A DNA stretch of 60,917 nt. Origin: Cyanophora paradoxa CCMP329. Its lineage: Eukaryota; Plantae; Glaucophyta. The first letter of the stretch is position 1. Every line of letters starts with the position of its first letter. Below are positions 1 to 60,917 of this stretch, piece after piece. The notes under the pieces were generated by a model that saw nothing but the letters and a program-made list of their open reading frames with translations, did no database searches and was not told the DNA's origin. The translations under genes and the position numbers were made by a program. The DNA lies in contig QPMI01000512.1 in NCBI GenBank assembly GCA_004431415.1, positions 1 through 60,917 of the forward strand, written 5' to 3'.

Positions 1-1306
1 TTATTGGGGCGTTGATAAACAATTCAAGCCTTCTCGTGTTGAGGTGCTCCAATTGCGGATCCGGGCAATCTGTTCTCCTCTACTGGTGCTACCACTCGTG
101 TGGTCTTCTATCTCCCTCGCTACAATTGGTGCAATGGTATTAGCCTCCAAGTTACCATTCCATCGGCGAAGGCGCTGACTGCCATCGCCAAGACCTCGGC
201 TGACTGCTCGGCTGATCTATTCAATACTGGATTCGTCCGCGGGCTTCCTGGCTCGTTTGTTCAGCGAGTCAGCATTAAATACGGGTCGTATGAGCAAATT
301 ATTCCCGCTGAGCGACTGGTAGATTACGCTTTCCTGGCTAACACTCCGGCTGAATTCGACCAAAAGAAGCGCAAGCATGGGCTGCATCTCGGACCGAAGG
401 TGGAGGGCGGCAACCAAGCCGTTTTTTTATCTTAAGAGCTTCTCGATGCTGCGCGTGCCCATCGGTGCGCTCCCATCCGAAATCGCGGTCGAAGTATATT
501 TCCAAACCCCTGCGCTGCTCGAAACTGCGGCGGTTCCTGGCGTTTACGCTCAGAATAACACGACTGCAATTACTGCTGCCAATTCGACCGATGGCGAGAC
601 GACGCTTGCTGTTGCGGCTGCTTTCGGAAATATTAAGACCTTAGCTCACCCTAATGCCACTGCGATTTTCGATAGTGCGGCTCTCACACCTACACCTGCT
701 CTTGCGAATCTGGAAATGACGACCCCTCGTATTATGGATGGCTGTTAACATCGATGAGGAAACGATGGGCGAAATCATTACTCGTGTTAAGACCTCTGGC
801 ATCGCCATCCCCTACACTGATATTCAGTTTGCGGATTATACCGGTCTTGCTCTCGGCTCTGGTCTGCGCCTGTCACTATCTCAAATTTCGGGACCGTTTA
901 CGCACTTGTTGTCAAGGTTCGCGACGAAAACACACTGGGCGATAATAAAGGAGGGCACTCTACTGTCCGCACCTTGCCTTCGATGATAATGTCGTGATGC
1001 AAGTTCTAAATAACAACAATTACCTATACTGGTGTGTGCAATCCGCGGCTATGGAGCTCGCCGATAAATTCAAGATGACCAACTGGATCGATAGCAACAA
1101 GCGCCCCATTTACACTGGCTTTTGCTCTCGATGGTAAAGCGGCGCTCAAAGGTGAGAAGGCGACTGGCTACGTCGATCTAACACAATCAGCGTCGAGCTT
1201 CCTAATCCTCACACCCAATGGCACACCCCTCGCCACCTGGACAAAGGTCGGTGTTCAGATCTCGGCTTACTGCCACAATATTCTTGTAATGAATCGGTCT
1301 CAGTAG
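1..1306 (+). pseudogene. PLV major capsid protein (double jelly-roll), 5'-partial, frameshifted
   Basis: Fragments GVDKQFKPSRVEV / VVFYLPRYNWCNGISLQV / GIAIPYTD / SAYCHNILVMN align by eye with the PLV-B MCP (GTNPKYKPFLEQV / AYFDLPRKQLLAGVSLYF / GGIRIPITE / YALRHNVMVLN). Split over ORFs 100-435, 377-748, 738-986 and further. Confidence 0.7.
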
Positions 1307-1424
1307 AATATCGGCATGAGGAATCTCGCGGGCAAAATTTGATGTCATTTTTCTGACGTTTTCCATAGGAAAACTACTTAAAGAAAAGGCAAATACATAG
1401 AGTAAAGGGAAGGAAAGATCAAAA

Positions 1425-2359
1425 ATGCCGATGGGAAAACCTTACACTCAGGAGACATTCATTCAGAAAGCCAATGAAGTTCATGGAGAAGGGCGTTACG
1501 ATTATTCCAAAGCGAATTACTCAGGCTGTTACACGAAAATCACAATTATCTGTAAGAAATTAATTGTTCTTCTGCAAAACATATCTATGGTCAGGGATGC
1601 AATTCGTGCAATCGGAAAGATGGGGTATCCAAGCAAGCACACCGTGTTACTAAGGAAGGCTTTATTGAACGATCCAAAGAAATACATGGAGATAAATATG
1701 ATTACAGCCTTGTGGAGTTTGAAACAATGAAAGACAAGGTCAAGCTCAAATGTAACGGATGTGGGCTGTTATTCGATGTCTCTCCTCGAAACCACATCCA
1801 TATAAAAATGGATGTCCTGACTGTGGACGAAAACAAAGTTCAGAAAGCTCTTCGTTTAACTACTGATGAGTTTATTGAGCGAGCAAATGCAATCCATGGA
1901 AATAGATATGATTATAGAAAGGTTACATATGAAACTTCTGCAACAAAAGTAACTATAATATGCTTGTGGTAAAGAATTCGATCAAACTCCAAACTCACAT
2001 TTGGAAGGGGCTGGGTGTCATCTTGCAACTTATCGAAGGGAGAGATGATTATTCAAAACGTCCTCGAAGATATTGGTCTAGATTTTGAAACACAACACAC
2101 ATTCGAAGACTGTAAACTGCAAAACTGTCTTAGATTTGACTTCTATATCCCAAGCCTTAAAATTGCAATCGAATATGACGGAATTCAGCATTTCAAAGCC
2201 GTTCCATTCTTTGGAGGGGAAGAGCACCTACAATTGACAAAACTGCGCGATAGTATCAAAAGTAGATACTGTGCAACAAATGGTATTGCCCTGCTGCGAA
2301 TTGCATACACCGAAAAAGATGTTAATGGGGCTATTAAAAAATTCTTAATGTCGTTCTAA
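1425..2359 (+). pseudogene. Homing-endonuclease-like protein: DUF723-like repeats plus C-terminal PD-(D/E)xK (Vsr-like) nuclease, frameshifted
   Basis: Repeats 'TQETFIQKANEVHGEGRYDYSK' and 'TTDEFIERANAIHGNRYDYRKV'. C-terminal 'SKGE...LRFDFYIP...IAIEYDGIQHF'. Confidence 0.8.
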
Positions 2360-2405
2360 ATACAAAGATCTTATTTTTATATGTTTCTTATAAGGGAAAG
2401 CAAAT

Positions 2406-3080
2406 ATGACTGGAAACGTGAGTATAGAAGATCTTGCGGAATTCGACCCGGCAAGTCTTTCATTCCCTTGCCGTTTACTTGCTGTCGGAAAAACGGGAGT
2501 AGGTAAGTCAGTATTCTTAAAATACCTGCTTTACCACAACGAGGACAAGATAGATTCGGTGATGATATTCGCTTCCACGATCTGGAACCATCAATATGAC
2601 AATGTCACATCGTATTTGTATGAGGATTTCGATCATAAGCTGATCGACAATATAATACAGAAACGCAAGGAGCGAATCAAGAAAAAGGAGAAAGTCGGTA
2701 ACCTGTTAATCATACTCGATGATTTCATTGACAATCCAAGTCTTCGATGTCAGGAAGAGGTGAACCTATATTAAATCAGCTATTCACGTCGGGGCGCCAT
2801 TTATTCATATCTGTGTGGATTCTGTCACAAAAACTCACTAAGATTTCGCCGACACTTAGGGTTAACTCCGAATATATCTTTCTATTCTCGCTGCCCAACA
2901 GAAAAGAGATGGAGAGTGCTGAGACGAGTTAATCCATACGAAAAGCATTGGTTGAGAAGGTATGACGAATACAGTCACAGCTATCAGGTTATCTGCATTG
3001 ACAACTCGAAATATAGCCTGGAATTCTCTGTGGCAAGGCTGATCCGGTGCCTGACGAATTAAATTCAAGCGGTTCTTTAA
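2406..3080 (+). pseudogene. A32/FtsK-like DNA packaging ATPase (PLV-A), frameshifted
   Basis: Walker A GKTGVGKS, Walker B LIILDD, and 'LFTSGRHLFISVWILSQ...ISPTLRVN'. Confidence 0.9.
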
Positions 3081-3339
3081 AAACGGTGGAAGAGATAAAG
3101 CCCGCTGGTAAACAGCGGTAAAACAGAGCTCCACAGAGGTAAATGGCGACCAACCCCAAACACCGATATAACGAAACCTGTGAGTGGAAACGTCGCCACC
3201 TTAAAGCGATCCACCAAAAGAATAATCGAAGCCGACCTACTTAAAGACCCCAATCTATTGCTGGCATACCAAGAAAAGCGCCGCCCAAAATTTGCAAAGA
3301 AATTGGGTAAATTTGAATAAATTTCTCGCATAATGATAA

Positions 3340-4009
3340 ATGCCACCCAAGAACTCGCGGAAAGCTATCCAAATGGAAGATCAAAGCGCTGTTGTCGCTG
3401 GCAAGATTAATCCTGCGGAGGATGCCGGTCGCACTGGCGGTGCTGCCGCTTTGACCAAATAGATTTCGATCTGATTGACCCGAATACAAAGGTTTCAGAG
3501 CGTGCTCAAAAGGTGGATGCTAAGCGGGAGCCGGTCGATTCCACTGATAGAAAGCTGGCGGATCAATCCCTCGCCGAATCACAGCTCACAGGCGAAAAGC
3601 TAACCGATAATAAGGTGGTAAAAGCCGAAGCAACAGCCGCTTTACCTGCATCGATGGAAGCCCCTAAAAAGCGGGCATCTGTCTATGTGACCAAGGCGAG
3701 AAAGTCGGTCAGGAATTAGAGGAGAAGTTTAGGGCTCTGGAAGCGCGTTTAGCTACCTACGACACTACTGTGAGAGCCTTTGATGATTTCACTAAGGACT
3801 ATAAACAGCGCAAATTAATTAAGCAAGCTGTTCGAGTGGAGATGGAAAAGAAGCGGGCAACTGTTCCCGATGTTCAGACAGTCGAAAGAAAAGAGACAGT
3901 CATAGCTGAAAATGCACCAAAGCCGGGCGGTTTCGTTAACCCATCGGGTGTGCATGCACAGCCGGGTGCCAATCTGTCATCTATGTTCGGTGGGCGTCGT
4001 CGCTTCTAA
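3340..4009 (+). pseudogene. Hypothetical Lys/Ala-rich protein (MPPK... start), fragmented
   Basis: ATG at 3340 follows an AT-rich motif; consecutive + strand fragments at 3513-3719 and 3770-4009. Confidence 0.4.
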
Positions 4010-4209
4010 TGTGCAAGTCGTTCAAACATAAATGAATCCGCCCGTATTTAGAGCGGGTCTTAATATGAATTCCCTTGCAAAAGGGACAGGTCGGCTCCAC
4101 AAACACCATTATAAGGTCGACTAATTCGTATGGGAACAGGCGAGCAAGTAACACCCTCATTCCCTTTTCTTTTCTCCAATATTTAATACGTTGTGCAATA
4201 TTAGGGTCG

Positions 4210-4557
4210 ATGAATTTCATCACACAATGCATTGAGATGTTTCACCTGCATTTCATATCTCACTGTAAGTCCGGATGCTGCGACACAACCGTAGAGTTTG
4301 ACATTTCGGACGAGGATAATGGAGGTAGGCGATCATCTGTATATTCCAACCACAGCGATAATCACGATCGTCCCCGATCTCGATCGCCCTCGCCTGTGCC
4401 TGCGAACTCCAATATAGTCCCACAGACAGCAATAGAAGACGTGCAAGTATCCTATATAAGACGCCGCTCGTGCCCTAATTCCGTGGAAGGTCATTTTCGC
4501 GTTGATTCCCCGTATCCGCCAATAAATCCGCTTTATTTGGGCGAATACGATCGCTGA
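4210..4557 (+). CDS. Hypothetical protein (Cys/His-containing N-terminus, Ser/Arg-rich C-terminus)
   Basis: In-frame ATG at 4210 within ORF 4075-4557. Confidence 0.4.
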   Translation: MNFITQCIEMFHLHFISHCKSGCCDTTVEFDISDEDNGGRRSSVYSNHSDNHDRPRSRSPSPVPANSNIVPQTAIEDVQVSYIRRRSCPNSVEGHFRVDSPYPPINPLYLGEYDR

Positions 4558-4775
4558 AACTATTTTCGCGTTAAATAGTATCGAATGCCCGACCCCGATC
4601 TCTACGCGATCCTATACAGGAAACGCGCGCAATACGCATTGGAAGTCGCTATTAAAAAACGTAGAGAAGAACTCGCTTCGATCACAAAAAATGACAGCTC
4701 AGAAAATGATTTAAAGAAGAAATAGGAAATACGACTGATAAAATATTTTCTCCGCTTATAGTAAGGAACGAAAAG

Positions 4776-5033
4776 ATGACCACCATCGCTGCTGTAAATA
4801 TTGAGGCAAAGCTTGTCACTGAGGACATGAAGAAAGGCGACGGACTTAATTATCGGATCCGTGAAATCATCAAAATGCGGAATCGGTATAACGAGGATCC
4901 CGAATATCGCGAATTCAAGAAGAAGATGGCTTGGAATCGTATTATCGTCGCAAAGCCGAGGAGGGAAGCCATATGGGAAAGCGGGGGCGCCCCCGTAAGT
5001 ATTAGAAAACGCAAAACTCTCGATTGCCGCTGA
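4776..5033 (+). CDS. Small basic hypothetical protein
   Basis: ORF preceded by the PLV-A promoter-like motif. Confidence 0.5.
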   Translation: MTTIAAVNIEAKLVTEDMKKGDGLNYRIREIIKMRNRYNEDPEYREFKKKMAWNRIIVAKPRREAIWESGGAPVSIRKRKTLDCR

Positions 5034-5215
5034 GCGCATTCCTTATTTTTCGTGCGGCTTTCCGATGTAAATCGGGAAGCTCCTTACCATACTATCGATT
5101 GCCCCGATGCTAATCGATTTATCATCGGGAAAAAACTGTAAAGGGATTTAAGGATAATGCGCAAAAAATGAACAACCTGAAAAATATTTTCTCCGCTTAG
5201 AGTAAAACAGAGAAG

Positions 5216-5942
5216 ATGGACGCTATCACGAAATTCGCATTCTCTAATGTCAAGGGCACCTTTCTGAAATGTCTGACTGGTTCTCGCAATACGTCTAATT
5301 TGGTTGAGTTAACCGATGATGAAATTATTGAGCGCATCAATAACTCAAAGAAACGGGACAATATGACCTATCCTACATGGGCGAATGCATACAACCTGAT
5401 CAAGTGACTCGTGTTTATCTGGATCTGGACAAGTTCGTTGATCTGAAACCTGATGTAGCCGACAACTATAAGGAAGCCGAAGAGATCATCAGGGAAATGC
5501 GCAAGAAATTGCAAACCCTGTCGGGATCTACAATTGCGGTTGCTGTTCGCCATCGCCGGGTTCATTTAATCAAAGAGAATGTCACTAAGTTCAAGATTTC
5601 CGGGCATTTCGTATTTACCGATCTGGTCTGCCGCCACGAAGACATTCCAAAGCTTTTTAAAGCGATGGGTCTCATCAAAAATGTCGAGTTCGATAGTGGC
5701 GTTTATGGAACAACTCAAAACCTGATCTGCCTCCGTTGCTGCAAAGGCGAAGCTTTGGACGCTCAAAGCAAATCAAAGCACGATGTCGATAAGAATGTGG
5801 TGTTCACTAAGTTCATTGATTGCGAAAAAGAGGGCATGCACGATGGCTTTTTCCTGGTGCAATGTTTCGATCGCCCCACCAAGTGGGTGGAAGTAGACAC
5901 CATGTCAGCCTTTGCGGTCGATAAACCAAAGGAAGCTACAAA
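5216..5942 (+). pseudogene. N-terminal AEP primase domain of the PLV-A primase-helicase, interrupted by PLV-B
   Basis: AEP motifs RVYLDLD, KISGHFV, FDSGVY. One frameshift near 5375. The frame continues after 16963 if PLV-B is excised. Confidence 0.85.
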
Positions 5943-6130
5943 AGCTGAGCTGTGAGCATTACACCCAAAAATTACCCCAATATAATTTGCCCCTTCAAGC
6001 AATATCCGCATGATTCCCAGTAACCCAATCCCCAATCTCAGTAAATCTCAGTAAGCCTCAGTCACAATCTATTTTATTTAATCGAAGTTATATCTAAAAT
6101 CTAATCAATCGAAGTTATATGCATTACACC
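5943..6130 (+). repeat. Left TIR of PLV-B
   Basis: AGCTGAGCTGTGAGCATTACACCC...GCATTACACC is the reverse complement of 16770-16957. Confidence 0.95.
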
Positions 6131-6492
6131 AAATTTTACCGCATTTTATTTACGACATTCAGTAACAACGAGAGATTCCCGATGATACACCCAATATACC
6201 CATATTTCTCGATTGAATCCATAAAAAACAACAAACCATAACTAACACCCGTTACACTTTAAATTTTCCGATTGATTCACATTACACCCATGAGTTGTAA
6301 GATGACATAATACCCATTTCACGGAAGAGATTAACGCGCTGTTGACATACATAATATCTTCCTTTCTCTTTTGTGTAATTCACCAAATCTTTCCACGGGT
6401 TTCTACACATCATATGTTTTCATTCCATGTTAAATACTTTCTCGGAACCAGAGTAACAGTTAAACCACTCGAACGATTTTTAAATTCCTCTT

Positions 6493-6738
6493 CTATTTCC
6501 TTTCGTTTATTTTCAATTCGTCTAATCGTTTTTCGCAATCTATGTGGTTTAATATCCTCGAATTTCCCTCATCTTCTTCTCTGTTTTCTTCTTCTTTGGC
6601 TCTCTCTAAATTCTGTTCCTCCCGGTGTTTCTCACAATAGACAGTATATCTTTGAGATTCATAGCTGAAAAAGTCATGGGATCTTCGAACTGTGCAGCAT
6701 CCACAATCTTCATATGTTTCCGTCGTTTCCCACCCCAT
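6493..6738 (-). CDS. Small hypothetical protein (CGCC motif, acidic coiled C-terminus)
   Basis: 81-aa ORF with AAAATTGA upstream on the minus strand (6775-6782). Confidence 0.55.
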   Translation of the reverse strand: MGWETTETYEDCGCCTVRRSHDFFSYESQRYTVYCEKHREEQNLERAKEEENREEDEGNSRILNHIDCEKRLDELKINERK

Positions 6739-6835
6739 CGTTATTACTACCTCTCAAATTCCTTTTAAACTCTGTCAATTTTTGTCCCGATGCAAAAAAT
6801 GACGCTCTTTTTTAAGAGTTTATAACTTTGTAACC

Positions 6836-7303
6836 ATGGAACAATACCTTAACTTTTTCAAGCAAAACAACATAACCTATAAGGATGTTTCACATGTATT
6901 TGCGAAAAGTTTCGAAAGAGGATATATTATGATTGCACAGTTAGCAGTGAAAACACCAGAGATGGTTTATATTGCTCAATTGAAAAAAGACACGGCACCA
7001 TGTTTCCGAATTCAGGGTTACATAAAAAATGCTGTGGTTGTTATCAAAAATGAAGATTTCATAGTTTCTCCTGAATTCAAAGAGAACCATGTAAGAGATT
7101 TTCTTAGCCACCCATACAATTGTAATGTTTGTCTCGATGATAAGGAAAATGGGATAAGATGTGATACATGTAATGCTTCCGTTTGTTACAAATGTTGGGC
7201 GGAAATGAGCATGAATACAAATAAGAAATGTCCGGCATGCCGTAAAGATTTAGATTACCCGTTTATAATCCAAAATGGACTTAATACATTCGTTGTTGTC
7301 TAA
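6836..7303 (+). CDS. RING-finger-like protein
   Basis: CNVC...CDTC...CYKC...CPACR. Confidence 0.8.
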   Translation: MEQYLNFFKQNNITYKDVSHVFAKSFERGYIMIAQLAVKTPEMVYIAQLKKDTAPCFRIQGYIKNAVVVIKNEDFIVSPEFKENHVRDFLSHPYNCNVCLDDKENGIRCDTCNASVCYKCWAEMSMNTNKKCPACRKDLDYPFIIQNGLNTFVVV

Positions 7304-7402
7304 ACTGTTATCGTCGTGGGTTCATTACTAATTCTTATTGATTCTCTCTTTTTATCGCTCGTCTCTTAACAAACTTCTTAAAGCCCTTCATATCATCGTC
7401 TG

Positions 7403-8065
7403 TTAGTATTGCCCGATCAGTATATATTTTATATCATACCCTTGCAATCCAGTTATGACAGTTTGGTAATTGTAACCCCATAGTCTATGAAGTTCCTTGT
7501 AAGTCTTCTTATCGAGACCCCCATTATACTCATCAAAGGCGCAATTGAACTCTTTTTCGTTCCCAAGAATATTGAAAAATACTACGAACTCAACATTTCG
7601 ACGAATGGTAGTAGAAATAGAGCATAAACGTTGAGTATTAATAATTACTGTAATCGAATAATGACGGGCTGTCGTAATCAATTTAGAAAGGACAGCTGAA
7701 TTATGCATATCCAAAGAAGAACCTATCATATCGTCTAAGATTATAACCAAATTATTACGCTTCTCATTATTCTCAATTCGTTTCTTTTGCATGCTAATGA
7801 GTTTCACTACTACATTATCGTCCCATTCCTCATAGATATTATCAGGATGCGTTATATCTCTGAATTGACCAGTAAACGCAGTAGAACTAAAGACTACAAT
7901 CTGATCGATCTTATCCCTCAGTTCATAAAGTAGATATTTGCAGTAAGTTGTCTTACCAGAATTGCTGCGCCCACATAATAAAAAACGCGTGCTTAATTTA
8001 ACTGTTCTTGCAGGCTCAAACTCTGGGATGTCATTCAAATCAATATCCATTCCTGTGTTATCCAT
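7403..8065 (-). CDS. A32-like packaging ATPase (PLV-B)
   Basis: GRSNSGKT, VIILDD, ARHYSITVIINTQ, IRRN. Confidence 0.92.
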   Translation of the reverse strand: MDNTGMDIDLNDIPEFEPARTVKLSTRFLLCGRSNSGKTTYCKYLLYELRDKIDQIVVFSSTAFTGQFRDITHPDNIYEEWDDNVVVKLISMQKKRIENNEKRNNLVIILDDMIGSSLDMHNSAVLSKLITTARHYSITVIINTQRLCSISTTIRRNVEFVVFFNILGNEKEFNCAFDEYNGGLDKKTYKELHRLWGYNYQTVITGLQGYDIKYILIGQY

Positions 8066-8144
8066 TACAGTAATAAGATAAAAAACAAAATAAACCCCTT
8101 ACCTACTAATTTTGCGCTTCCTACTCTAACGAAAGAAAAGAACT

Positions 8145-9370
8145 TTAAAAGTTCGAGACTTTCAGGGTAGAGATGTTGTAGCCATTGAGGACCATAACAT
8201 TGTGTCGTAGGGCATAGATGTCAACCTGAACAGGAGCCGCATCAGTGCATCCCGAAACAGTGAGATCCATGTAGCTCGAACTGCTGTTGAAGAAATCCTG
8301 GTAACCCATAACCGAATTGTGGAGCGAATCTTTTCCGGACTTGGAAAGAACAATCCCGTAAACGTTTCCAGACTCGAATCCGTAGGTGGTATTGCCAACT
8401 GAAACACCCTTATAATGGGATGGAATGTGATTCATTGCCGAGAGGAAACCGGAAATGGGTTTGTTGGAGATATCAAGGAGCGATTGTTGTGGAAGATCTG
8501 GAACTGATCAATTTTAACAGCAGATTCATGACCACAGAAATCTGAGTGAGTGTAGGTGTTAAGTTTGTTCACCTCTCGAACAGTCATCAGAATCGAGTGA
8601 ACCAGACCGGAAACATTAGCGAGTGTAACCTCAACCGATTCACCAGCATCAGCGGTTTTGAGCGCTCGGGTCTTCTTGTGAATGACCTCTGTGATTGGGA
8701 TGCGAATGCCACCTTGTTCGTTCGCCATCTTCAAGAGTGTCTCAGCCTCAGCCGAAGCGATGTTAACGAATTGGCAGATCAGAGAGCAATCCGCAAAGGT
8801 AACAGATCCACCGGCAGGAACTTGGACAATCGCAGCATCACGGAAATCCACCTCAATCGTTGGCATATCTGCCAGTGTGCATAGTGGGAAGTAGGCATCG
8901 TCCCAGAAAGCAGCGGGGATTTTGACAATGTATTCCATAGCCTCATCTGTGCTTTCACGATCTGTCTCTTTGAAGTAACCGAGAGAAGCAAACATACTGC
9001 CCATAGTAGCGTGATCATTATCGACCAGGGCGTTTACAGTGATCCAATCACCAGGGATGATATACTTGAAACCACCATGAACGAAGCGGACCTCATTAAT
9101 GAAGGAGGAACCACCATTGGGGAGGGTGCAGGCTACCTCACCACCAGTGGCAATCTTGAAATAGAGGGAAACACCAGCAAGGAGTTGCTTGCGAGGTAGA
9201 TCAAAGTAAGCGGTATTCTTAAAGCCAAAAGTATTGCCTCGGGGACGAACTTGCTCGAGGAATGGTTTGTACTTGGGGTTGGTTCCAATTTGGAGACCAG
9301 GGGATAGATAAATTTGATCGGAACCGGGAGTTACGAGGAGTTCCTTAAGGGTAGTTGCAGTGAGTGCCAT
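8145..9370 (-). CDS. Major capsid protein (PLV-B), one frameshift near 8435
   Basis: About 400 aa when joined. Beta-rich DJR-like pattern (FGFKNTAYFDLPR...FINEVRF...FPLCTL...IEVDF...DIYALRHNVMVL). Lies between the ATPase and the penton gene. Confidence 0.8.
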
Positions 9371-9422
9371 CTCTTATGTTTAAAATACCAAAAGAAATTT
9401 TTAAAATGCTTTATTAGACAGA

Positions 9423-10322
9423 ATGACGCGTCATTACCTTAATATTGATTCTCGGGATCGGGATGATGGAACCCCAACGAACTTCACATACAAAATTCCC
9501 CATGCAATCCAAAATGTGAGAGCCTGCAGAGTGACCAACTTCGAGATGTTCAATAACATTTACAATCTCAGCGAGAATGGAAGTTTGATTACAGGAACCT
9601 ATGATGCTGGGGATGTAATTAAAACTAAGAATAACACTATTTCGAAAGGGACATATACCTCTGATAGTTTGGTTAATCTCCTAAATGCCAAACTTGCTTC
9701 ACAGGTATATGGTGCAGCAGGAACTACCTACACTCGCCATTTTCATGTAACCTATGATCCTGTTACCATGTTGCTAAGGTTCATGTGCGATGCAACATTT
9801 ACCCTCACCTTTGGAAGTCGGATTTTAGCGAACTTCCTTGGTTTCCCAGATCGCAGACCTGACAGTTCTGAAAATGGTTATGCTTCTGCCCTGCTCGATT
9901 CGCCAGTAACAGTTGGAGCAAATACTTATAATTACTACATTGACAGTGTTATACCGCTTGATCTTCTGTTCAACTCTTACATCCTTCTTCATGTTGACCC
10001 ACTCAAAGGCAACTATGTAAGCAAGAACACCAGCGATGATAAAGCCCTTGCGAAAATTGAGATTGACCAAACGGTAGGCAGTCTACTAAAATACGATTCA
10101 TCGAATAATTCCATGATCTTGCATGAGCAAAATGGTTTGGTGGAAGTTGAAACGCTAAAAGTTCGTCTCACATACTGGAATGGTGTTGAAACCGATATTA
10201 CTACAGATTGGTCGATGACTCTCGAACTGATTACTGAAGATGATAAAGATCTGACAAAGAAAGCATTGAAGAATGTCATAAAAGAGTTGGAGGGACTCTA
10301 CCTGCCGTTCTCACGGTCATAG
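9423..10322 (+). CDS. Minor capsid (penton) protein
   Basis: N-terminal 'YLNIDSRDRD..PTNF' and C-terminal 'LKVRLTYWNG...DWSMTLEL', typical of PLV/NCLDV single-jelly-roll pentons. Confidence 0.85.
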   Translation: MTRHYLNIDSRDRDDGTPTNFTYKIPHAIQNVRACRVTNFEMFNNIYNLSENGSLITGTYDAGDVIKTKNNTISKGTYTSDSLVNLLNAKLASQVYGAAGTTYTRHFHVTYDPVTMLLRFMCDATFTLTFGSRILANFLGFPDRRPDSSENGYASALLDSPVTVGANTYNYYIDSVIPLDLLFNSYILLHVDPLKGNYVSKNTSDDKALAKIEIDQTVGSLLKYDSSNNSMILHEQNGLVEVETLKVRLTYWNGVETDITTDWSMTLELITEDDKDLTKKALKNVIKELEGLYLPFSRS

Positions 10323-10358
10323 GAAATACTGTAGAATAAATTTGTCTCGATATTACAA

Positions 10359-46725: not shown

Positions 46726-46766
46726 TTGTAAACGCTTGTAATCAATTGCACCAGAGAATTTACAAT

Positions 46767-50242: not shown

Positions 50243-50428
50243 ATGGCTGACCCCTCGCCCGACCCGGCCGCAGGCGTCGAGAGCGCTGGCAGCTCGGACG
50301 AGTACTCGGAGCTCTCGGATCCGGATCCCGACGAGCCCTCCGACGCCTTCGCGACCGAGAACGAGCGCTCCCTCATGCGCATCTACGAGTCCCTGCGCGA
50401 AGCTATCTACTGGAGGACCCGCGCCTAG
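50243..50428 (+). CDS. Small acidic hypothetical protein
   Basis: 61 aa, upstream ATTTTC motif. Confidence 0.5.
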   Translation: MADPSPDPAAGVESAGSSDEYSELSDPDPDEPSDAFATENERSLMRIYESLREAIYWRTRA

Positions 50429-50962: not shown

Positions 50963-51289
50963 CTAGCGTTTAGAAAATAGCGCGCGAGCCTCGAGCACCA
51001 GGAGACCCGCCACAACCGCTGCGGCGATGACCACGGCAACCTTGAGCCAGTGCCAGAAGCGCTCGGCCACGTCCGTGAGCGCGCGGCCCGCCTTGCCCGG
51101 TGCGGTGAGTGCGGAGCCCAGCGCGCCCGCCGCAATGTCCGCCCACGCGCCTCCGTCGCCGCGCAGCACGTTCTCGCGGTTCTTCATCTCGACTGTGGCG
51201 CCGATCGCGGCGTTGAGCTCACCGAACTGCAGCCGCGGCGCGCCCTTGGGCCCAAAGGTCTTGGTGAGCAGCGCGTCGAGCCAGCTCAT
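50963..51289 (-). CDS. Small protein with C-terminal TM helix
   Basis: WHWLKVAVVIAAAVVAGLLVL. Confidence 0.6.
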   Translation of the reverse strand: MSWLDALLTKTFGPKGAPRLQFGELNAAIGATVEMKNRENVLRGDGGAWADIAAGALGSALTAPGKAGRALTDVAERFWHWLKVAVVIAAAVVAGLLVLEARALFSKR

Positions 51290-54200
51290 CTCTACTAGCT
51301 AGCGCTTCGAAAATCTATCTAAATCGCGAAGCCGCGCAGGTACCAGACCATGAGGAGCGAGCCGCCGAGCGCCACGAGCAACGGCAGGTGCCCGTCGACC
51401 GCGCGCCGCGCCTCCCAGGCCCAGATCTCCTGGCGGCTCAGCTCGTTCGCGCCGTCGAAGTAAGCGCTGACGCCGTACTCGCGCGCGGGCGCAGGCTGCG
51501 ACCAGAGGCCGGCGCTCAGGCGCGGCGCCCCTCCCTCTGCTGCTGCGAGGCCAGCGCCGCCGTCGCCGCGTGCGCCGCCTCGCGCTGGCCCGGGGCGATC
51601 GCCACGAGGGGCAGGGGCCCGACGCCGCGGCCCTTGCCCGCAGCCTTAATCGACTTTAGCGCCGGCGGCGCCGGGTCCGCGCCCCTTATCTTAGGCCCCT
51701 CCGCCCGTCGCCCCGCCCCCGCCCTTGGCAGCCTCGCCGATCTTGCTGCAGCGCGAGTCCGATTTGAACACGTACACAACAGCTTCTCTACGGCGTTGGC
51801 ATGTTTAGACGTGTACAGACGATGAAGAAAATTTAAATGCAACGGACTCAAAGGACGTCGCAACTTTGAAAAGGGAAAGGGGGGAATGGAACTTTGAAAA
51901 GGGAGAGTTAACGCCCGCGGGGCGCATGCCGGCCGTCGCCATCGAGACGGAGCCGGGGGCGTAGAGGGTCTTGGCGGCGTAGCCGAAGCCCACGCCGATG
52001 ACGGCCGAGGCCGTGGGGTGCCGCCGAGGAGCCAGGTGAGGGTCGCGGCGAGGGCTCCTAGCGAGTAATGCGGGGATAGCTGTCAGCGAGGGCCATCGCG
52101 AGACCGATTGGAAGGGGTTGAGAAAAAATACCGCCTCGGGCCTCAGTGGTGGAGGTGCCGGAAGCGCGCGTTGTCTCGGCCTCCTCGCGCTCCGCCTGTC
52201 CTCCGCCGCGTCGATCTCCGCCGCGAGGCCTCCAGCGTCGCCCGCCGCGCGTAGGACTGCGGGACGGCCACGCGCCGGTAGGCTGGCGAGGTCTTCGACA
52301 GCCCCGCCGTCTCCGCCTCGAACGCCCGCCAGTCTCCGAGGCCTCCGCACCGGAGATCTGGCGGGCGCGGAATCCCGCCTCCAGCTCGGCGCGGAAGGCG
52401 AGGGTGCGCTGGAGGCGCTGGGCCCGAGGGCCTGGCGCCGCTCCTCCGCCTCGCGCGCCTGGCGCGCCGCCAGCGCCTGCCGCTCGGCCTCCTGCTGGGC
52501 CCCGAAGCCCTGGATCGCGGAGAGGACGCGGGCCGGGGCGCGCGTCGGGGCGGGGACGGGGGCGGGGCTGCGTCGGCGAGGGACGGGCTGGGCGCGCGTG
52601 GAGGGGCGACCGAGCGCTGCCGCGCTCGGGTCTCCTTGGATCAGGAGGGGGGCGAGGGGAGGGGGGTACAGGGAAGCGGGGGTACGCGGGGCCGGACCTG
52701 GCGCGGCAGCATCTCGTCGATGCGCTGCTGGCCGGGGCTGCTGGCGGCGTGCTGTGGCGTGCGAGGGGGGCGGGGGCGGGACGAAGGCGGGGCCGAGTTG
52801 CGGGTGCGCTTGCCCTGCCGCGGTGAGGCCTTGACGGGAAGGGCCGTTCTCCGGGTCCGCCGGCTCGAAGAACTGGATGGCCTGCAGCGCCGGCTGGCTC
52901 TCGCCGAGGGAGAGGGGGCCTTGGGGACGATGCCGCGGATGTAGGTCTGCCAGATGCCGCCGGCCTGTAGGAGAAGAGGCGCACTGGGGCCGAAGGCGGC
53001 GATGGTCTCGTCCAGCCGCCGTTCTCGATGTCGGCGGCGAGGGCGGCGGAGGCGTCCGGGCCCTCGGTGCGCGAGACGTACTCGCAGATGCCCGCCACGC
53101 TCGTCATGCCGCCCTCCGTCTCCGAGCCGACGAGGTAGGTGGTGGGGTCGACGACGCAGTGGGTGATGATGAAGCGGGTGAGGGGGCAGGCGGCCGTCTC
53201 CTGCCAGAAGGCGAGGCGCTTCTCCCGCAGCCACACCGGCTCGAAGGCCTGGATGCAGGAGGCCTGGCGGCCACCTGCGGCGCGGGCGACGTTAGCGCGT
53301 ACGACGTCGGGACGGGCGGGGAAGGTGCGCGGCTTCGAATCCAGCGGCTCCCCGCGAAGCTGCCTGCGGCCCAGTGAGCGTGCTGCGAGCGGGAGGTGGG
53401 AGGGATTGGGCGGGCGGGCCTGCGTCCAGCGCTGAAACGTAGCTCCACTGATGCTATCCGCGATGCGCGTAGCCCGCGACTGGCCGCGGACAAGGGAGGG
53501 CTTAGCTAGGACAAGAACGGGTGTGGGGCGCGGGGCTGGAGGCGCGGGAGGCGAGCCGGAGCCGCCGAATCGATGCGCGGGCTTGAGAACGAGATCTAGA
53601 AGCGTGCGCAAGTCGCCGCGAACGTCGGCTCGAGTTGCGGAAGGCGCGGCGGCCAATCTCGGCACCTGCTCAGAGACCAAATGTCAGCGGACGCGGGCGA
53701 ATCGAGCGCGAGGTTGCGGGGCATGTTCTAGGTGCTAAATGCAAGGGATAGAGCGGCAAGAGAGCGAGCTGGCACCTGCGGGATGCGGCGGAGTGCTCCG
53801 GCTCGGGCGCCATCGAGCTTTCGAAGGTCCGCGGCCGGCGCGAGCGACCCTGCGCGTGGCGGCGTGAGTGCGGCGTCGAGAGAGCTTTCCAGCGCCCAAA
53901 ATCTGAGGTCCGGAGCTAGCCGTGGTGCGGAGAAAGAGGTTGCGAAGTGAGGCGCACCTCCGAATCGAAAGGAGCGAGGCGGCGGCTCTCCGGGCTGAGC
54001 GGAATGCAAGCTAGTGCCTCTGGCAAGTGCTGCAAGGAGCGCTGGGCCCGGGCGCTGCGAGATGCGCTGCCCGGGCGCTTTTTTTCGGGTTGGGGTACTG
54101 TGTTTTGAGTCGAAACACGTGGAGCAACCGCGTGAGCCCAAAACTTTCTGAGCTTAGGAGCAAAGGCGGTCGAGCGCTCGGCCGCGCAAGCTAGCTCCGG

Positions 54201-54418
54201 CGCGCTCTGCCTTCTCTCTACACGTGTCGCATTCACGTGCGCTCAAAACTTTCTAAGCTTCGGTCAAGCAAGGGGCTAGCGCTTCCGAAGTTCTACGCGC
54301 GCGCCTCCCCGTCCGCCGGGCCGACGGTCTGCGCGTCACATCGTCCGCTGCGCCAAGAAGGAGAGATCAAGACGGTGTCAACCGGGTCTAGTTGAGCGCT
54401 TAAGGTCGGACCAAAGCC

Positions 54419-54553
54419 TGTCCCGACCCTCCCAGATCTTTAAATTAATATCTCAGAAGGTCGAGACAGCCGCTGAGCAGTCCGGATCCAGACGGACCAG
54501 AGCCTGTCCCGACCCTCCAGATCTTTAAATTAATATCTCAGAAGGTCGAGACA
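54419..54553. repeat. Two roughly 50-bp palindromic units with AT-rich core upstream of the UL9-like gene
   Basis: TGTCCCGACCCTCCCAGATCTTTAAATTAATATCTCAGAAGGTCGAGACA at 54419-54468 and 54505-54553. Confidence 0.9.
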
Positions 54554-54643
54554 GCAGTCCAGACGTCGACTATAGCTAGCCAACAGACGTTGACTAGCCT
54601 AGTAGATCTAGAATTTTCCAAGCCTAGCTATAGAGAGACGACC

Positions 54644-57600
54644 ATGGCAACCGGACGCGTGTCTCTCGACGTCGACGCCTTCCTGGCCCGTATGCCCGGG
54701 CCCGGGGTACAGCAGATAGATCTGAGCGAGCAGGAGTGCAGCTTTTTCGTTCGATTCCCTCTCGTCGAAGTCCAGAAGGCCTGCAGCCCGACCCTGGGGA
54801 CGGCTTTCTGCGTCTTCCACCCGCCCTGCATCACCCCCAGCCACTTCTCGGGTGCCGAGGATGAGACGAGCACCGCGGCAGCCTGCGCCTTTGCAACCAA
54901 GTTCGGAGGCTTCACTTTCTCTCGCCCCTTGGATAATGGATTCAAGGCTGCCTACGTCCTACAGAGCCCGGAGGCTTGCGATCTCATGGCATGGTTCTTT
55001 GGGAGCTCGAGCGGCCTGGAGCTCGGTGTGGATGGCACGGGGGCTACGTTCTGCGGGGGCCGGCGCCCGGGCCGCGAGCGGAGCTCCTCCCCACTCCATC
55101 CAGAAGCTCGGCGCCCCGCGCTAAGCCCATCCCGGAGCCGGGCGCTCTCCTGGATTCGAGCCCAAGCCTGCCGGCCTTGGAGCGGCTCCTGGACCGCCTG
55201 CGCAAGAACAAGGCGGTGAGGGACGAGATCTGGAAGGCGGGGCAGAGCTGCGCGCGGACCTTGGCCTGCACGACGCCCGCCGCGTTCAGCACCTTGGAGT
55301 CGAGCCCGACGGGTCCATCACCCTCGTCCTGGGCGGGAGTCAGCCGGGGGCGCCGGCGGCTCGAATCTCCATCCAGGCGCACGGTATTGAAGTCGAGCTC
55401 GAGGGGAGGGACCGGAGGGGAGTCGGGCAGCGTGGCACAGACCCGCTATGTGACCGATCCCTCGCAGCCTGTCGCCTTCGACATTGCCCTCCCTCCCTCC
55501 TGATCGCGCTCGAGTCGACGGGCCTGGAGGCTTGCGTCAATGCAGTGGATGAACGCCACCTCTCGTGCAAGATCCTTACCTCCGCATTCGGGGCGCTGGA
55601 GCAGAACCCGAGATCCGCTCAGCCGCAGGTCGACGTCATCTGCTCGGGACTCAACACGGGGAAGACGCAGGCGCTGATCGATGCGTACCTGGACCCGGCC
55701 CTCGCAGGCGGCTGGCGAGTGATCCTCGTGACTTGCCGCCGGGCCTTCTCCCGCGACCTCAAGCGTCGCATTGATGCTGCGGAGTTGTCAAAGGACGCCG
55801 TGCTTTACATGGACATCAAGAAGCCACCGGAGAGCTCAAAGGGATCGCATGGCAAGTGGGGCTTCCGCCATGAGGAGTGCAGGTGCGTCGTCATCACATG
55901 GGACTCGCTGCACAAGGTGCTCGAGGACTGGGAGGGCTGGTCGACGGCGCCGCTACTGGTCGTGCTGGACGAGCTCTCCTCCCTCACGAAGCACCTCACC
56001 TCGAGCGGCACCCTCGAGCCCACCGGCCTGCACCTAGGTATGCGGTCAGTGCCTCGAAACGCGCGCTGCGTGGGCCTATGGCGCGGCGTGATGAAGGCAT
56101 CGCGCATCGTGGCGATGGACGGCTTCGTTCGGTCGGTCGATCTCGCGTACCTGGCAGAGTCGGCGCAGGAGGTCGGGGCGCGCCTGGGGCTCCTGTACAA
56201 CTCGCATCGCACCTGCGACTGGAAGATGCGCGTGTCAGACAGCCCGGCGCACGTCGAGGCGGACATCATGGTGCAGTGCCGACCTGGGCGCTCGCGGGCC
56301 ATGATCATCGCGGAGACGCCGGCCAAGGCGATCGAGCTGCAGGAGAAGATTGCGAAGCAGGCGCTGGAGCAGCTCAGCCTGGGCGGCGCTCAGTACGTGA
56401 CTCAGCTCGAGGCAGGGCCCGAGGACGGCAGCGGCGCACCGTTCACGATCGGGCTCATCGTTGGGCAGGCCAAGGAGAAGAGCGTGCGCTTCACGAACGA
56501 GGGCCCAGTGCGCATCGTGTCGATCGATGTGTCTGAGGAGGGCGCGTACAAGGCCTGCGACGTGCTCATCGCAACTTCCGCGCTCGGGGCAGGCGTGGAC
56601 TTTTCGGACGCGCACTTTGACAAGGTCTACGGCGTGTTCCAGGCGGAGCCCGCGCAGCTGGAGGCGGACGACATCGTGCAGCTGCTGTTTCGAGTCAGAA
56701 GGCTGCGCAAACGCAGCACGCCCGACGGGAGCACCTGCTCGTCGCCGTGCGCAAGAACCGGACGCCCTCGGTTGCGGTCGGCGCGGCGGCTGCGCACTGG
56801 CGTGAGAGCGACGACGACGAGAGCTCGGACGACATGCAGCGCTACCTGGACCTGAAGGCTAGCCACCGCGGGAGCCGCCGCGCCGGCATGCCCACTCGGC
56901 GCCTCGCAGTGGCAGCGCGCCTGCGGCTGATGTCGACCTGCGCGCTGATGAACGTGCAAGTCACGGAGGATCAAAACCCGAGCGGACCGAAGCAGGAGAA
57001 GGAGCAGCGGCTGCGCGAGATCAGGAGCGTGCTGGAGGCGGGCGCGCTGGAGCCCGTCGATCTGTGGAGCACGGTGCTGGCCTGGAGGCAGTCCCGCGAG
57101 TCTCTCGCTAAGCTGGACATCGAGAAGGTTGCTTCGCTTGCTCGCACGTCGATCGCCGCGTTCCTGGCCAAGGATCCGAGCGAGCTGACCGAAGGAGACG
57201 TCGCCTGGATGTGGGATTCGTTCTACTCCATCCCGCTCACTGCCGTGGTCACGCTGGTGCTGAAGCATGGCGCGGACGTTGCCGAGATCGTGCCTACTGC
57301 TGAGCGCCTCAAGGTATCGAAGGTCGTCGCGCTGTTCAAGAAACTCTTCGGCTGGCGGGGTATGGAAAGCTCGCGGGGCGTGCTCTGTGGTCGGACGAAG
57401 CCTACGCGGCCCTGGCGTCGCCGGAGGGTCGGGAGGCGTACGCGGCTCTGCAGAGTCTGGACGAGCGCGCGCCCCGCTTCGATGCAGCGGACGGTGAGAA
57501 GAAGCGGCTCTCGCAGCAGTCTTGGCAAGTCATCAAGTACCTGCTGGAGAAGTACCTCGGAGTGAGACGCGCTTTCTCCGACGCGGACGGAGGGCAAATG

Positions 57601-57759
57601 GGCAGCCGAAAGCGACGCTACATCACGTGGGAGGAAGACATGCTCGACGACGCAGTAGAGCGCCAGGCTAAGCAGGCAAGGGCAGGCATGGCGCCAAGCT
57701 TCCCAGAGGTTTACAACGTTTTCTCCGACTGCTATGCTCTCATTCACAGGCGCGTGTGA
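54644..57759 (+). pseudogene. UL9 (herpes origin-binding protein)-like SF2 helicase, several frameshifts
   Basis: VICSGLNTGKT, ILVTCRRAF, ITWDSLHKV, VVLDELSS, IVAMDG, IATSALGAGVDF, QLLFRVR (core ORF 55545-56855). Confidence 0.82.
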
Positions 57760-57860
57760 TTGTCGGATGTCACAGTGTGGACTTCGCGAACGGGATGCGC
57801 GTGCCAGTGTGTAAATACGAACGTGCGAATTCAAGTGACGTCATGCATATGATCAATGAA

Positions 57861-58467
57861 TGTCTCGACTTTTTGAGATATTAATTTAAAGATCTGGGAG
57901 GGTCGGGACATTGCGAGGGCGGACGAGAGTGAGGGCATGCACTCTCTATGTGTCCCGACCTTTTCTGAACAACTCATGATTGCCGTATCATCGATCTGCA
58001 TTTACTCACTTCGTTCTCTGTCGCTTGCACATGCGCGGTGTGGGATTACTAATTAGATCTAGTCTCCCTAGCCCTCTGCGGCCGCCTTCCTGCCCCCCTG
58101 CAAAGAGCAGCTCAACCAAATCCTGTGGGGTCTGATTCATTGCAGACTCGCCTTCCCCGCCTGGGCCTGAGCTACACCAAGCTACGGTGAGTCCGACCAA
58201 GAGACGTGTCCGGACCCTCCCTACTTTCTTTATAGATTATTGGAAAGGTCCGGACACTAGAGGAGGGAGGGCGTACATAAGTAGTCTGACCAAGAGACGT
58301 GTCCCGACCCTCCCAGATCTTTAAATTAATATCTGAGAGGGTCGAGACACTAGAGGAGGGCGTACATAAGTAGTCTGACCAAGAGACGTGTCCCGACCCT
58401 CCCAGATCTTTAAATTAATATCTGAGAGAGGAGTCTGAGACAGCTAGACACTAGAGGAGGGCGTACA
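57861..58467. repeat. Further palindromic units (one inverted, three tandem) downstream of the UL9-like gene
   Basis: 57861-57910 (inverted), 58207-58256 (variant), 58300-58349, about 58389-58442. Tandem units include CTAGAGGAGGGCGTACA, the YqaJ 3' end. Confidence 0.88.
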
Positions 58468-59116
58468 ACTTAAACTCGCGCAGCGCCGCCTGCTCCTCGC
58501 TGAGGTTCTCTGACTTCATTCGATCGCTGTAGGGCTCGGGCGGAGTTCCAGCCTTCACGTGCGACCAAAATAGATGTAAGCACCGCCGCATGAGCTGAAT
58601 GTACCTCTCGTCCCGTCTGACGTACCACGTTCGCACGCGCAGAGGCGTGAAGCAAAAAAGTTCGGCCCACTCGCGGCCCGTTATGTCTAAAAGTCCTTGC
58701 AGCTGCGTCATGTAATAGGTAGGAACCTTGTCGTAGAGTTCTTGTTTGTACGGACATTTTATTTCGAGTATGCGATCGTTTCCGATTAGCCCGTCCGGGC
58801 TCCCCGCCAGGAAGGGCAGTTCCTTATGTTCGTGCAATCCAGTATGTTGCACGTCCACGTTATTGTTCAACGTTTTGTAGAGAGAGACCGCGAAGGGCTC
58901 ATAGTCATGCCCGTAGGTTAGGGCAGGGTTGTCAAAGTTGTTTTCCTCCGCTATCCCGCTTAGCTCCGCCCACAGGCGGGCCCTGGATTTCCAGGGGTTT
59001 ATACCGCACGCAGCCGCAAAATTAGATGCAGTTAGTTTTTCACGGCGCGCCGCGTGCCACGCCGCGCTCCCCTGTTGTAAGTTCTCGCAAGTCTCGCAAT
59101 CTGTATCGGTATGCAT
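58451..59116 (-). CDS. YqaJ-like (lambda-type) exonuclease/recombinase
   Basis: QGSAAWHAARREKLTAS, YGHDYE, LAGSPDGL, LEIKCP, YYMTQLQ. Confidence 0.95.
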   Translation of the reverse strand: MHTDTDCETCENLQQGSAAWHAARREKLTASNFAAACGINPWKSRARLWAELSGIAEENNFDNPALTYGHDYEPFAVSLYKTLNNNVDVQHTGLHEHKELPFLAGSPDGLIGNDRILEIKCPYKQELYDKVPTYYMTQLQGLLDITGREWAELFCFTPLRVRTWYVRRDERYIQLMRRCLHLFWSHVKAGTPPEPYSDRMKSENLSEEQAALREFKLYALL

Positions 59117-59167
59117 AGCTTAGCCTCGCAGTAGCGTTTAGAATTTCTTGATGTGTGCGAATGCATA

Positions 59168-59897
59168 TGTCTGATAATCAGACTACCCTCCCACCGCTAT
59201 CGGGGTACATCCGAGATTACACTAAGCAGGTAAACGGGCTGATCGGCTGGGTGAAAGAAGAGATCCCCAATACAATGCGAGACGGGGGCATGGCTGCGAC
59301 GTATTTGCGCGATGTGGCACGCAGAGGCCTCGGGTCCAGGGTAGACATCCGAACGTATGAGCCGCCGGTGTACGAAATCGAACACAGGGACGACATGGGC
59401 AGGGTTCGCGATGAACTTCGCAAGCTCTGGTGGGCGTTCGGCTCGCGCAAGAGCCCCATGACCTACCTGCCCCAAGACGTTCAGAGAGTTATACTGGATC
59501 TCTTCCTGAATGCGGGCACTCGCACGGAGATCATCAATCGCCCGCTCAATATTTTGAAGCACTACTTCCAAGGCTTCGTTCACCACGCCAAAAACAAGGA
59601 AGATGAATGGGTGGTACCCTATGTCCCCCATCGGATTTGATCCCTGAAGGATGGGACGAAGAACAAGACAATATGGAAGAACGGTTCAAGAGATACAAGT
59701 ATAGAAAACTGACGCCTGCCGGCCCACCGTACGGCCCACCGGCGCCCACGGCGGAGCAGCGCCAAGAGATACTGCGGGAGGGTCAGATTCGCAGGTGGAT
59801 GGAGTACAGCAATGATCCGACGAGCTGGTCGCCAGACGAGGCCGAGCTGCGGAAGCGCGCGAGGCTGCCAGGCCCTCGATACCCCGACCGCGAGTAG
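59168..59897 (+). CDS. Hypothetical protein, paralog 1 (frameshift near 59635)
   Basis: Shares segments with 59933-60671. Confidence 0.55.
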
Positions 59898-59932
59898 GGG
59901 GTACAGGTAGAAATTCTCACCGAGCCGCGAGC

Positions 59933-60671
59933 ATGGCGCGAACACGCGAGTCCGACGTGCTGTACAACAACGGCGACCTGGACGGGGAGATTCGACAGCG
60001 GAACGTGGACTTGGAGGATGCGAACGCAGTGCTGGAGGGAGGCGCACGTCCTCAGGGGCGGCTCGCCGGCGGAGAACTTCATGGAGCGCGTGCTCTACCT
60101 TGTGCGCTGGATTAGAGACGAATTCCACGACGAGCGAGAGCTCCCGGACAGGGAGATGATCAGGGCCGCGGGCTTGATGGGTATGACAGAGAACCCGAGA
60201 TCGTACCTGAGGCGCGAACGCAGGGATCTGAACGGCGATTGGGCCGACCTGCAAGCGCTGTGGACGGCCTTTGCGAACCGCAAGAGCCAGATCCTTGCCC
60301 TGCCCGCGCAGGTACAGCAGCGTATCATTGATTTCGTAGCCCCCTGGCGCGACGAGTCCCTCCAGCAGCCATTCATGCAACCACGCTTCCTCTCCGGGCT
60401 CAGGAGCGCGTTCTTCCACTTGGCCGTGAGCAGCGACCGGTATTTCACACCGCAGAGGATCGTTCACGGCGAATTCGGCATACCCCCCGAGTGGCTGAAT
60501 TTTGCCACCGTACCCCCTTCCCCACCCCGCCTCGAAGGCCCCCCCTCCCCTACCCCCGAGCAGCGTGAGTCACTCAAGCGTCAGAGGGAGGTACGCGAAT
60601 GGATGGACGACACCAGCCACTGGGTACAGGGCGAGGCCGAATTACGCAAGTTCGGAAGGTTCGGGCAGTAA
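59933..60671 (+). CDS. Hypothetical protein, paralog 2 (possible frameshift near 60030)
   Basis: LQALWTAFANRKS..LPAQVQ and GPPSPTPEQR..EAELRK match paralog 1. Confidence 0.55.
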
Positions 60672-60917
60672 CAGCGGGGGGTACAGCATTCAGTTAGAGC
60701 CTGAGCATCGTTAGAGGCCGGGAGGCCCCCCGAGGGGTACACCGGCTGTTACTCCCCGCGTCGGTTAGTGCTAGCCCCCCTGTTAGTGCAGCGTGTACCT
60801 GATCGCAATATAACACCCAAACCTCCGCGACGCGTGACTCATGCAACCTCCGAGGGTTAACAATGCATTGACAGCGAAGGGGCAAGCTCGAGAGCTCGAC
60901 CCTTGGCAAGAGCCCAC

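Follow-up and report, generated by a model that had tools for sequence, protein, structure and literature searches.

The window analysed here, 60,917 nucleotides of contig QPMI01000512.1 (positions 1 to 60,917; assembly GCA_004431415.1) from the glaucophyte Cyanophora paradoxa CCMP329, carries a stack of three viral elements. A polinton-like virus (PLV), PLV-B, lies in a gene of a second one, PLV-A, and PLV-A abuts a truncated gene of a GC-rich, mriyavirus-like relative of the nucleocytoplasmic large DNA viruses (NCLDVs), the outer element. We consider it probable that the stack is a pile-up of endogenous viruses in C. paradoxa chromosomes: viral DNA would have twice received an ordinary integrase insertion, neither of them targeted. 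Four things were seen directly: the insertion scar of PLV-B, the terminus of PLV-A, a version of the cut gene that is still whole, and the spread of the outer family over many contigs.

Base composition divides the window in two, GC being ~0.43 on the left and 0.62 on the right; over 300 bases, GC is 0.30 before position 28386 and 0.58 after it, with the best change point at 28387-28389. Three capsid genes and three packaging ATPase genes are present, one of each per element. The capsids of PLV-A and PLV-B are distant relatives of each other, and a profile alignment of PLV with outer-element capsids is weak (probability 20%). A preliminary description, drawn from the letters of the window, had seen three independent capsid modules; this holds for three major capsid proteins and three ATPases belonging to separate genomes, but not for unrelated folds. 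The observed/expected ratio of CpG is 0.77 in PLV-B versus 1.1 in PLV-A and the outer element.

PLV-B interrupts a primase-helicase gene of PLV-A

PLV-B is a bounded element of 11,015 bp (5943..16957) with AG...CT ends, delimited by inverted ends and a target duplication. Its terminal inverted repeats are 191 bp long (left arm, 5943..6133, plus strand; right arm, 16767..16957, minus strand) and differ by one mismatch. Both flanks read TACAAA, giving a 6-bp target-site duplication at 5937..5942 and 16958..16963 (both plus strand). The interrupted gene, on the plus strand, keeps one reading frame from its 5' part (5216..5942) into its 3' part (16958..18854); the latter matched PriCT_2 (E 7e-14) and DUF5906 (E 9e-20), and the former contains what we take, from motifs read by eye, to be a primase. 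The inverted ends, the duplication and the continuous frame agree with the earlier claim that PLV-B sits cleanly inside a PLV-A gene. Target duplications of 5-6 bp are known from mavirus and Polintons (PMC8547959). In two runs, one contig extends 1,285 letters unbroken leftward from 17000; it may represent the uninterrupted PLV-A gene.

PLV-A ends on the base at which a fibre-like gene of the outer element is cut

Sixteen DNA runs, presumably of the same species, share 0.64-0.66 of the window's words; no RNA run did so among the matches listed. Read contigs were checked at the empty site in 6 of these 16 high-share runs and on the side of the PLV-A end in four runs. In all six, an empty-site allele was found: a contig matches from 28386 onward and has different sequence before that base, and this sequence encodes the continuation found in relatives of the cut gene. 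This gene (28386..31136, minus strand), seen in the window as a 943-aa open reading frame (ORF), is coiled-coil and predicted to be fibre-like, and comparison with relatives and empty-site contigs marks it as truncated by PLV-A. Of its relatives, 38 proteins were examined and 22 reach the site; 21 of the 22 read straight on, and none has the window's tail. The uninterrupted allele that the preliminary description had suggested looking for was thus recovered in both data sets, and the departure of the 943-aa ORF from its native sequence, which it had placed at about 28386, falls exactly there. The depth of contigs at the empty site is ~50-90x that of the rarest variants, which is no copy number and only a rough hint.

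Long relatives of the cut gene run on for ~770-830 aa and end in C-terminal phage-tail repeats (PHROG 14, E 1e-9), so the gene likely encodes a fibre; ~2.3 kb of it is missing from the window. High-depth read contigs omit parts of the gene (29438-30069 and 30074-30198), which suggests that the family has coiled-coil length variants. Tail repeats fused to an H-lectin occur in one C. paradoxa PLV (PMC12220804), a fusion that recalls the family of the cut gene by description only.

On the other side of the junction, PLV-A contigs end at 28385 in 4/4 runs. In one run, only ~1/5 of the end depth continues with the window's next base, and a different flank lies beyond 28385 in another, the sole other flank listed across the four runs. 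Because contigs stop there and the flanks differ, 28385 appears to be an element end that is used at several sites.

The outer element belongs to a multi-copy family in C. paradoxa

The outer element is visible over 32.5 kb (28386..60917; GC 0.62), with neither end in view. A motif built from 21 upstream regions on the left side of 48.3 kb also scored in 9 such regions beyond 49.5 kb (p 0.002); because it recurs on both sides of this interval, 28386-60917 is likely one genome. The exact sequence of the outer capsid is present in EukProt, and its relatives (at least 13), like those of the fibre (at least 23), all came from one EukProt assembly, labelled C. paradoxa, among the matches listed. 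Genes of the outer family lie on at least 48 contigs with that label. Capsid and fibre genes are within 20 gene numbers of each other on all 14 contigs that have both, and the gene order is kept on 8 of the 8 contigs carrying all three genes. One contig has two fibre genes 162 gene numbers apart and spans at least 163 genes. The capsids form subfamilies as distant as ~60%. From these data we infer that the outer copies are chromosomal. The C. paradoxa genome is otherwise rich in viral DNA, its 99.94 Mb holding 366 capsid loci of PLV type (PMC10120064, Table S4) and, as reported, methylated giant-virus-like regions (PMC12344493).

Endogenous-virus pile-up and its alternatives

If the stack is an endogenous-virus pile-up, the outer element would be one of tens of chromosomal copies in C. 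paradoxa; PLV-A would have inserted in its fibre-like gene and PLV-B in the primase-helicase gene of PLV-A, each probably by its own rve integrase. The 6-bp scar of PLV-B is of the kind left by an rve enzyme (5-6 bp; PMC8547959). PLV-B may have entered either before or after PLV-A moved. The insertions would persist since their cost to the host is presumably small, and if silenced viral DNA tolerates insertions, nesting would be commoner than by chance. Without its predicted fibre tip, the outer virus in this copy would depend on help in trans, as would PLV-A without its primase-helicase. With 30-70 outer copies assumed (1-3% of the genome), chance alone would place ~4-12 of the 366 PLV loci inside one, and the chance that a family of 12-18 has a copy inside an outer element is 0.12-0.44 at assumed copy numbers. 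The preliminary description had named an endogenous-virus hotspot in a protist genome as its alternative; with outer-family genes on at least 48 contigs, the 366 PLV loci and the expected chance nesting, that alternative fits best.

Several points weigh against this explanation. The window contains no host gene and no viral end, and the chromosomal location of this copy is presumed from the rest of the evidence; the left end of PLV-A and its target duplication lie outside the window. No contig bridging 28385/28386 was found in 4/4 runs, among 32 of 81 pieces, and the depth right of 28386 equals that of the junction-less contigs in 4/4 runs, leaving no room for a hidden bridge. Random choice of insertion sites is presumed; a search for PLV-A copies by protein names gave one relative at E 1e-20 or better. 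Finally, the upstream motif of the outer element also scores in PLV-A (p 0.002), a result that rests on three near-duplicate segments. The missing bridge is a weak counterpoint because contigs lose variants that are rare, and the other flanks of 28385 are nearly all missing as well; a recent insertion or a different strain would also explain it. The earlier placement of PLV-A in a mriyavirus-like genome is supported by the empty-site allele and the exact terminus; outer DNA resuming left of PLV-A would lie beyond the window, and no read across the junction was among those listed. That PLV-A is "inside" the outer element, with outer-virus DNA resuming to its left, is what we infer.

The preliminary description had preferred a provirophage-like association. 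Spelled out, PLV-A would target the mriyavirus-like genome, rely on late transcription factors of that virus and be carried along with it. We regard this as improbable. The insertion does hit an outer-virus gene; the outer upstream motif beats shuffles in 10 PLV-A upstream regions at the p value given above (p 0.09 for 9 PLV-B regions); the copies look young, read contigs showing 0 substitutions in 1,069 bp; and dependence of some PLVs on larger viruses is known (10.64898/2026.06.19.733378). However, the motif was spotted by eye before it was tested, and its p value becomes 0.01-0.2 with one of the three near-duplicates kept and 0.1-0.5 with none. A 15-mer common to the PLV-A tail (25881-25929) and the outer repeats was striking against whole-window shuffles, but 36 of 100 Markov simulations give one, and we set it aside as within chance. 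Every run examined has the empty site as its dominant allele, and since the predicted fibre tip is destroyed by the insertion, co-transmission would be blocked. PLV-A also carries its own polB, primase-helicase, capsid and ATPase. RNA polymerase is the resource that virophages take from their helper. Mriyaviruses are described as lacking one (PMC11253617). The outer family is spread in many copies over at least 48 contigs, in a PLV-crowded genome where chance by itself predicts nesting, and the proposal is not supported. A bolder version, to which we likewise give little credence, is that a still-active mriyavirus of C. paradoxa both enters and multiplies in chromosomes by its HUH proteins without an integrase, and that PLV-A, its dedicated nuclear parasite, uses its late transcription factors by way of the shared promoter motif and inserts into its genome; if true, no virophage-like parasite of a dwarf virus in the Nucleocytoviricota would have been known before PLV-A.

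A somewhat smaller chance attaches to the 28385/28386 join being an assembly chimera or a rearrangement, such that PLV-A merely adjoins a broken outer copy. The lack of a bridging contig and the many indel errors in the window, typical of long-read assembly, would suit this. Nonetheless, the join sits on the exact base at which PLV-A contigs end in independent data, and PLV-A shares no homology with the cut gene there, so a mis-join would have had no reason to choose that base; moreover, with one other flank recovered across four runs, contigs evidently lose most flanks, and their silence says little.

Least likely of all is a lasting extrachromosomal infection of the culture by the outer virus, assembled as many contigs, with PLV-A inserted in one of its free genomes: the window is without host DNA, many carrier contigs appear short by gene numbering, and persistent co-culturing nucleocytoviruses are reported from other protists, but capsid subfamilies as distant as ~60%, the contig that has two fibre genes and spans 163 genes or more, and the methylated viral regions of the C. 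paradoxa genome (PMC12344493) all speak against it.

Gene content of the outer element

The outer capsid gene (42882..44327, plus strand) encodes an NCLDV-type major capsid protein of the double jelly-roll class. It matched Capsid_N at E 9.5e-5 (22.5 bits versus a curated cut-off of 24) and, at 0.98, the Nucleocytoviricota capsid clusters of ESM Atlas; the best Foldseek rows for its predicted model, which is poor (predicted local distance difference test, pLDDT, 39), are likewise NCLDV capsids. The packaging ATPase gene (37714..38870, minus strand) is frameshifted; its product has a Walker A motif and resembles the other two ATPases of the window (BLASTP E 1e-6 and 7e-6), with Pox_A32 at only E 0.075. 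The other genes of the core set encode a VLTF3 late transcription factor (36132..36962, plus strand; Pox_VLTF3, E 9e-25), a RuvC-like (A22) Holliday junction resolvase (38824..39294, plus strand; Pox_A22, E 1e-6) and a YqaJ-like PD-(D/E)XK nuclease (58451..59116, minus strand; YqaJ, E 1e-29).

Two adjoining genes on the minus strand encode HUH-motif proteins. The short one (35057..35899) is a predicted rolling-circle initiator with HxH and YxxK motifs and an ESM Atlas score of 0.93 to a rolling-circle Rep cluster; the long one (676 aa; 33003..35033) has a C-terminal HUH-motif domain and is 28% identical to the short protein (E 5e-9). Motifs II and III are visible in both paralogues, and the recognition of the Rep cluster is under threshold. 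A predicted HUH model (poor, pLDDT 40) gave no match in the PDB, nor did its profile give any match.

At 48065..49515, four copies of a 55-90-bp repeat, two of them direct and the others inverted, surround an AT-rich spacer; the outer virus may have its origin or a genome junction here. The layout resembles origins bound by UL9-type helicases. A UL9/origin-binding-type superfamily 2 (SF2) helicase is encoded by a frameshifted gene at 55518..57565 (plus strand; Herpes_ori_bp, E 2e-9). A second repeat family, direct and inverted, flanks the helicase region (54405-54555, 57861-57910 and 58190-58467) together with an 89-bp tandem array, and the helicase may lie in its own cassette.

No DNA or RNA polymerase and no integrase was found in the visible 32.5 kb of the outer element. 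VLTF2 had no Pfam match among the 62 ORFs scanned, the outer genome being incomplete in the window. Positions 46767-47561 returned no solved structural relative. An F-box-like LP..V...I stretch was seen by eye in small ORFs at 40387-40725, 59161-59640, 60018-60671 and 3981-4232, for which Pfam gave no match. An Rfam search gave no match, and scans of viral and metagenome contigs returned no relative and no reference mriyavirus among the matches. One ORF of PLV-A and one of the outer element have an 11-residue match, which is too short to serve as evidence of gene exchange.

Gene content of PLV-A and PLV-B

PLV-A is visible left of PLV-B at 1..5942 and continues to the right of it; its left end is outside the window. 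The genes in this paragraph are all on the plus strand. The major capsid gene is in frameshifted pieces with its start at or outside the window edge (85..1294; tblastn E 4e-37 with P0053, a C. paradoxa PLV capsid protein). It is followed by a homing-endonuclease-like gene in pieces (1425..2359; PHROG 559, E 2e-32) and a frameshifted A32-like packaging ATPase gene (2406..2929; Pox_A32, E 3.5e-6) whose second piece resembles the other ATPases of the window. Right of the interrupted primase-helicase lie a protein-primed DNA polymerase B gene, polB (19738..23000; DNA_pol_B_2, E 1e-11), and an rve integrase gene (24073..25515). The integrase had earlier been called intact, and it is indeed an unbroken 480-aa frame with D-D-(35)-E spacing, matching Pfam rve only at E 0.03. 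With capsid, ATPase, replication protein and integrase, PLV-A has the makings of a polinton-like virus.

Over 17000-18068 (1,069 bp), the window and the read contigs of 4/4 runs differ by 0 substitutions and 3 gaps, and at position 20377 contigs of 4/4 runs have one extra base. Because the contigs show gaps without substitutions, many of the window's frameshifts are likely assembly errors; decay was considered as their cause and set aside on the same ground, although some indels may be the copy's own. The lack of substitutions makes it likely that the elements are young.

The non-coding terminal region of PLV-A (25516..28385), with tandem and palindromic repeats, is likely one terminal inverted repeat. 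It ends in a perfect hairpin with a 28-bp stem (28315..28385; z -9.75, 0/200 shuffles). This right end, a 71-base palindrome with final GTGT, differs from the AG...CT ends of PLV-B; a terminal hairpin is unusual in a protein-primed element. The PLV-A end was sought in metagenome contigs and was not found there. A palindromic CCCCAC-rich element of 120-220 bp occurs once after the PLV-A helicase gene (18854-19073) and three times in the terminal region (27049-28062), and a 7-base tandem array at 25881-25929 differs in length between read contigs.

PLV-B, with capsid, packaging ATPase, integrase, terminal inverted repeats and target duplication, likewise has the features of a polinton-like virus; at only 11 kb it retains capsid, ATPase, helicase and integrase. 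Its A32-like packaging ATPase gene (7403..8065; Pox_A32, E 2e-14) and major capsid gene, in two pieces (8145..9370; E 2e-17 with a C. paradoxa PLV capsid protein), are on the minus strand. A plus-strand gene at 9423..10322 is a putative minor capsid (penton) gene, its N-terminal motif being one that we presume to be of that type; it had no library match and no solved structural relative. The 312-aa piece of the capsid is a confirmed major capsid protein in PMC10120064 (Table S2). A superfamily 1 (SF1)-type helicase with a long N-terminal part follows (12425..15756, plus strand; AAA_19, E 4e-9; UvrD_C_2, E 0.004). By eye, this N-terminal part may be a polB remnant; compared with PLV-A polB, it gave no match. 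A Tlr1-type fusion of polB with an SF1 helicase is known (PMC12721341). The rve integrase gene of PLV-B is in frameshifted pieces (15710..16763, plus strand; rve_3, E 0.003; tblastn with P0028, E 5e-11). Both PLVs have a RING-finger gene (6836-7303 and 19113-19607), and the two are weakly alike. Relatives of the PLV-A integrase (62%) and of the PLV capsids are on short ENA metagenome contigs, and kin of these PLVs may exist outside this C. paradoxa culture.

Comparison with known systems

The outer element has an NCLDV-type capsid, an ATPase (by weak matches), VLTF3, a RuvC-like resolvase, a PD-(D/E)XK nuclease and an SF2 helicase, a set that agrees with that of the Mriyaviricetes. Members of that class (Yaraviridae and "Gamadviridae") share the set of capsid, ATPase, VLTF3, RuvC/A22, nuclease, helicase and HUH-motif genes; as described, they too lack DNA polymerase, RNA polymerase and integrase, as does the outer element in its visible 32.5 kb (PMC11253617). 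Their genomes are 35-45 kb, and VLTF2 is found in all gamadviruses and some Yaraviridae (PMC11253617). With "Gamadviridae" the outer element shares a second, long, predicted HUH-domain protein with the domain in the C-terminal half, but it has an SF2 helicase in place of their SF3_hel2, the two types being mutually exclusive in that source; a UL9-like SF2 helicase is known from a subset of Yaraviridae only (PMC11253617). Because two HUH genes are a gamadvirus trait and an SF2 helicase is a Yaraviridae trait, we call the element mriyavirus-like and assign it to no family; its gene mix fits neither described one. The outer element also differs from the described class in its tens of syntenic copies, neither "integrat" nor "endogen" occurring in the main text of PMC11253617. 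Mriyaviruses have been reported to include endogenous members, without integration genes (10.64898/2026.06.19.733378). Phaglo-G, an endogenous NCLDV-like dwarf virus, is similarly small and GC-rich (61%) and comes from an algal assembly with AT-richer PLVs; its host, however, is a haptophyte, and its description states neither a PLV inside it nor a high copy number (10.1101/2022.07.28.501842).

The outer family is the useful part of these data. A cultured glaucophyte with tens of syntenic, recent mriyavirus-like copies, with no integrase in the part visible, extends the mriyavirus-like host range to glaucophytes. Two questions become testable in a single strain: by what route mriyaviruses turn endogenous, and whether there are PLVs that rely on a dwarf virus of the nucleus rather than on a giant one of the cytoplasm. 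Endogenous PLVs of C. paradoxa have been catalogued (PMC10120064; PMC12220804): they include the capsid of PLV-B itself, and the PLV-A capsid resembles PLV capsids of the same genome. As far as they are accessible, those catalogues give capsids and gene content, without this nesting or the outer virus. A literature search, with subscription journals, figures and preprint supplements largely outside its reach, gave no earlier description of a mriyavirus with a PLV inserted in it, nor of this mriyavirus-like multi-copy family in a glaucophyte; viral nesting over three tiers has already been published, and so have mriyavirus-like viruses that are endogenous.

Sputnik-type provirophages sit in mimivirus genomes. 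The present arrangement is like theirs in that a small, integrase-bearing capsid virus lies in the genome of a larger giant-virus relative; unlike theirs, the outer genome here is likely host-integrated, shows no RNA polymerase gene and has had a structural gene disabled by the insertion. Nesting by itself is ordinary, since viral DNA gathers further viral insertions, and giant-virus and adintovirus insertions are known to co-occur (PMC11244446). A close precedent is Halocafeteria seosinensis, where viral nesting is frequent, a three-tier case occurs and viral DNA is described as an insertion hotspot; all tiers of those nests are virophages or PLVs, whereas in C. paradoxa the outer tier is a Nucleocytoviricota relative (10.64898/2026.07.28.741278).

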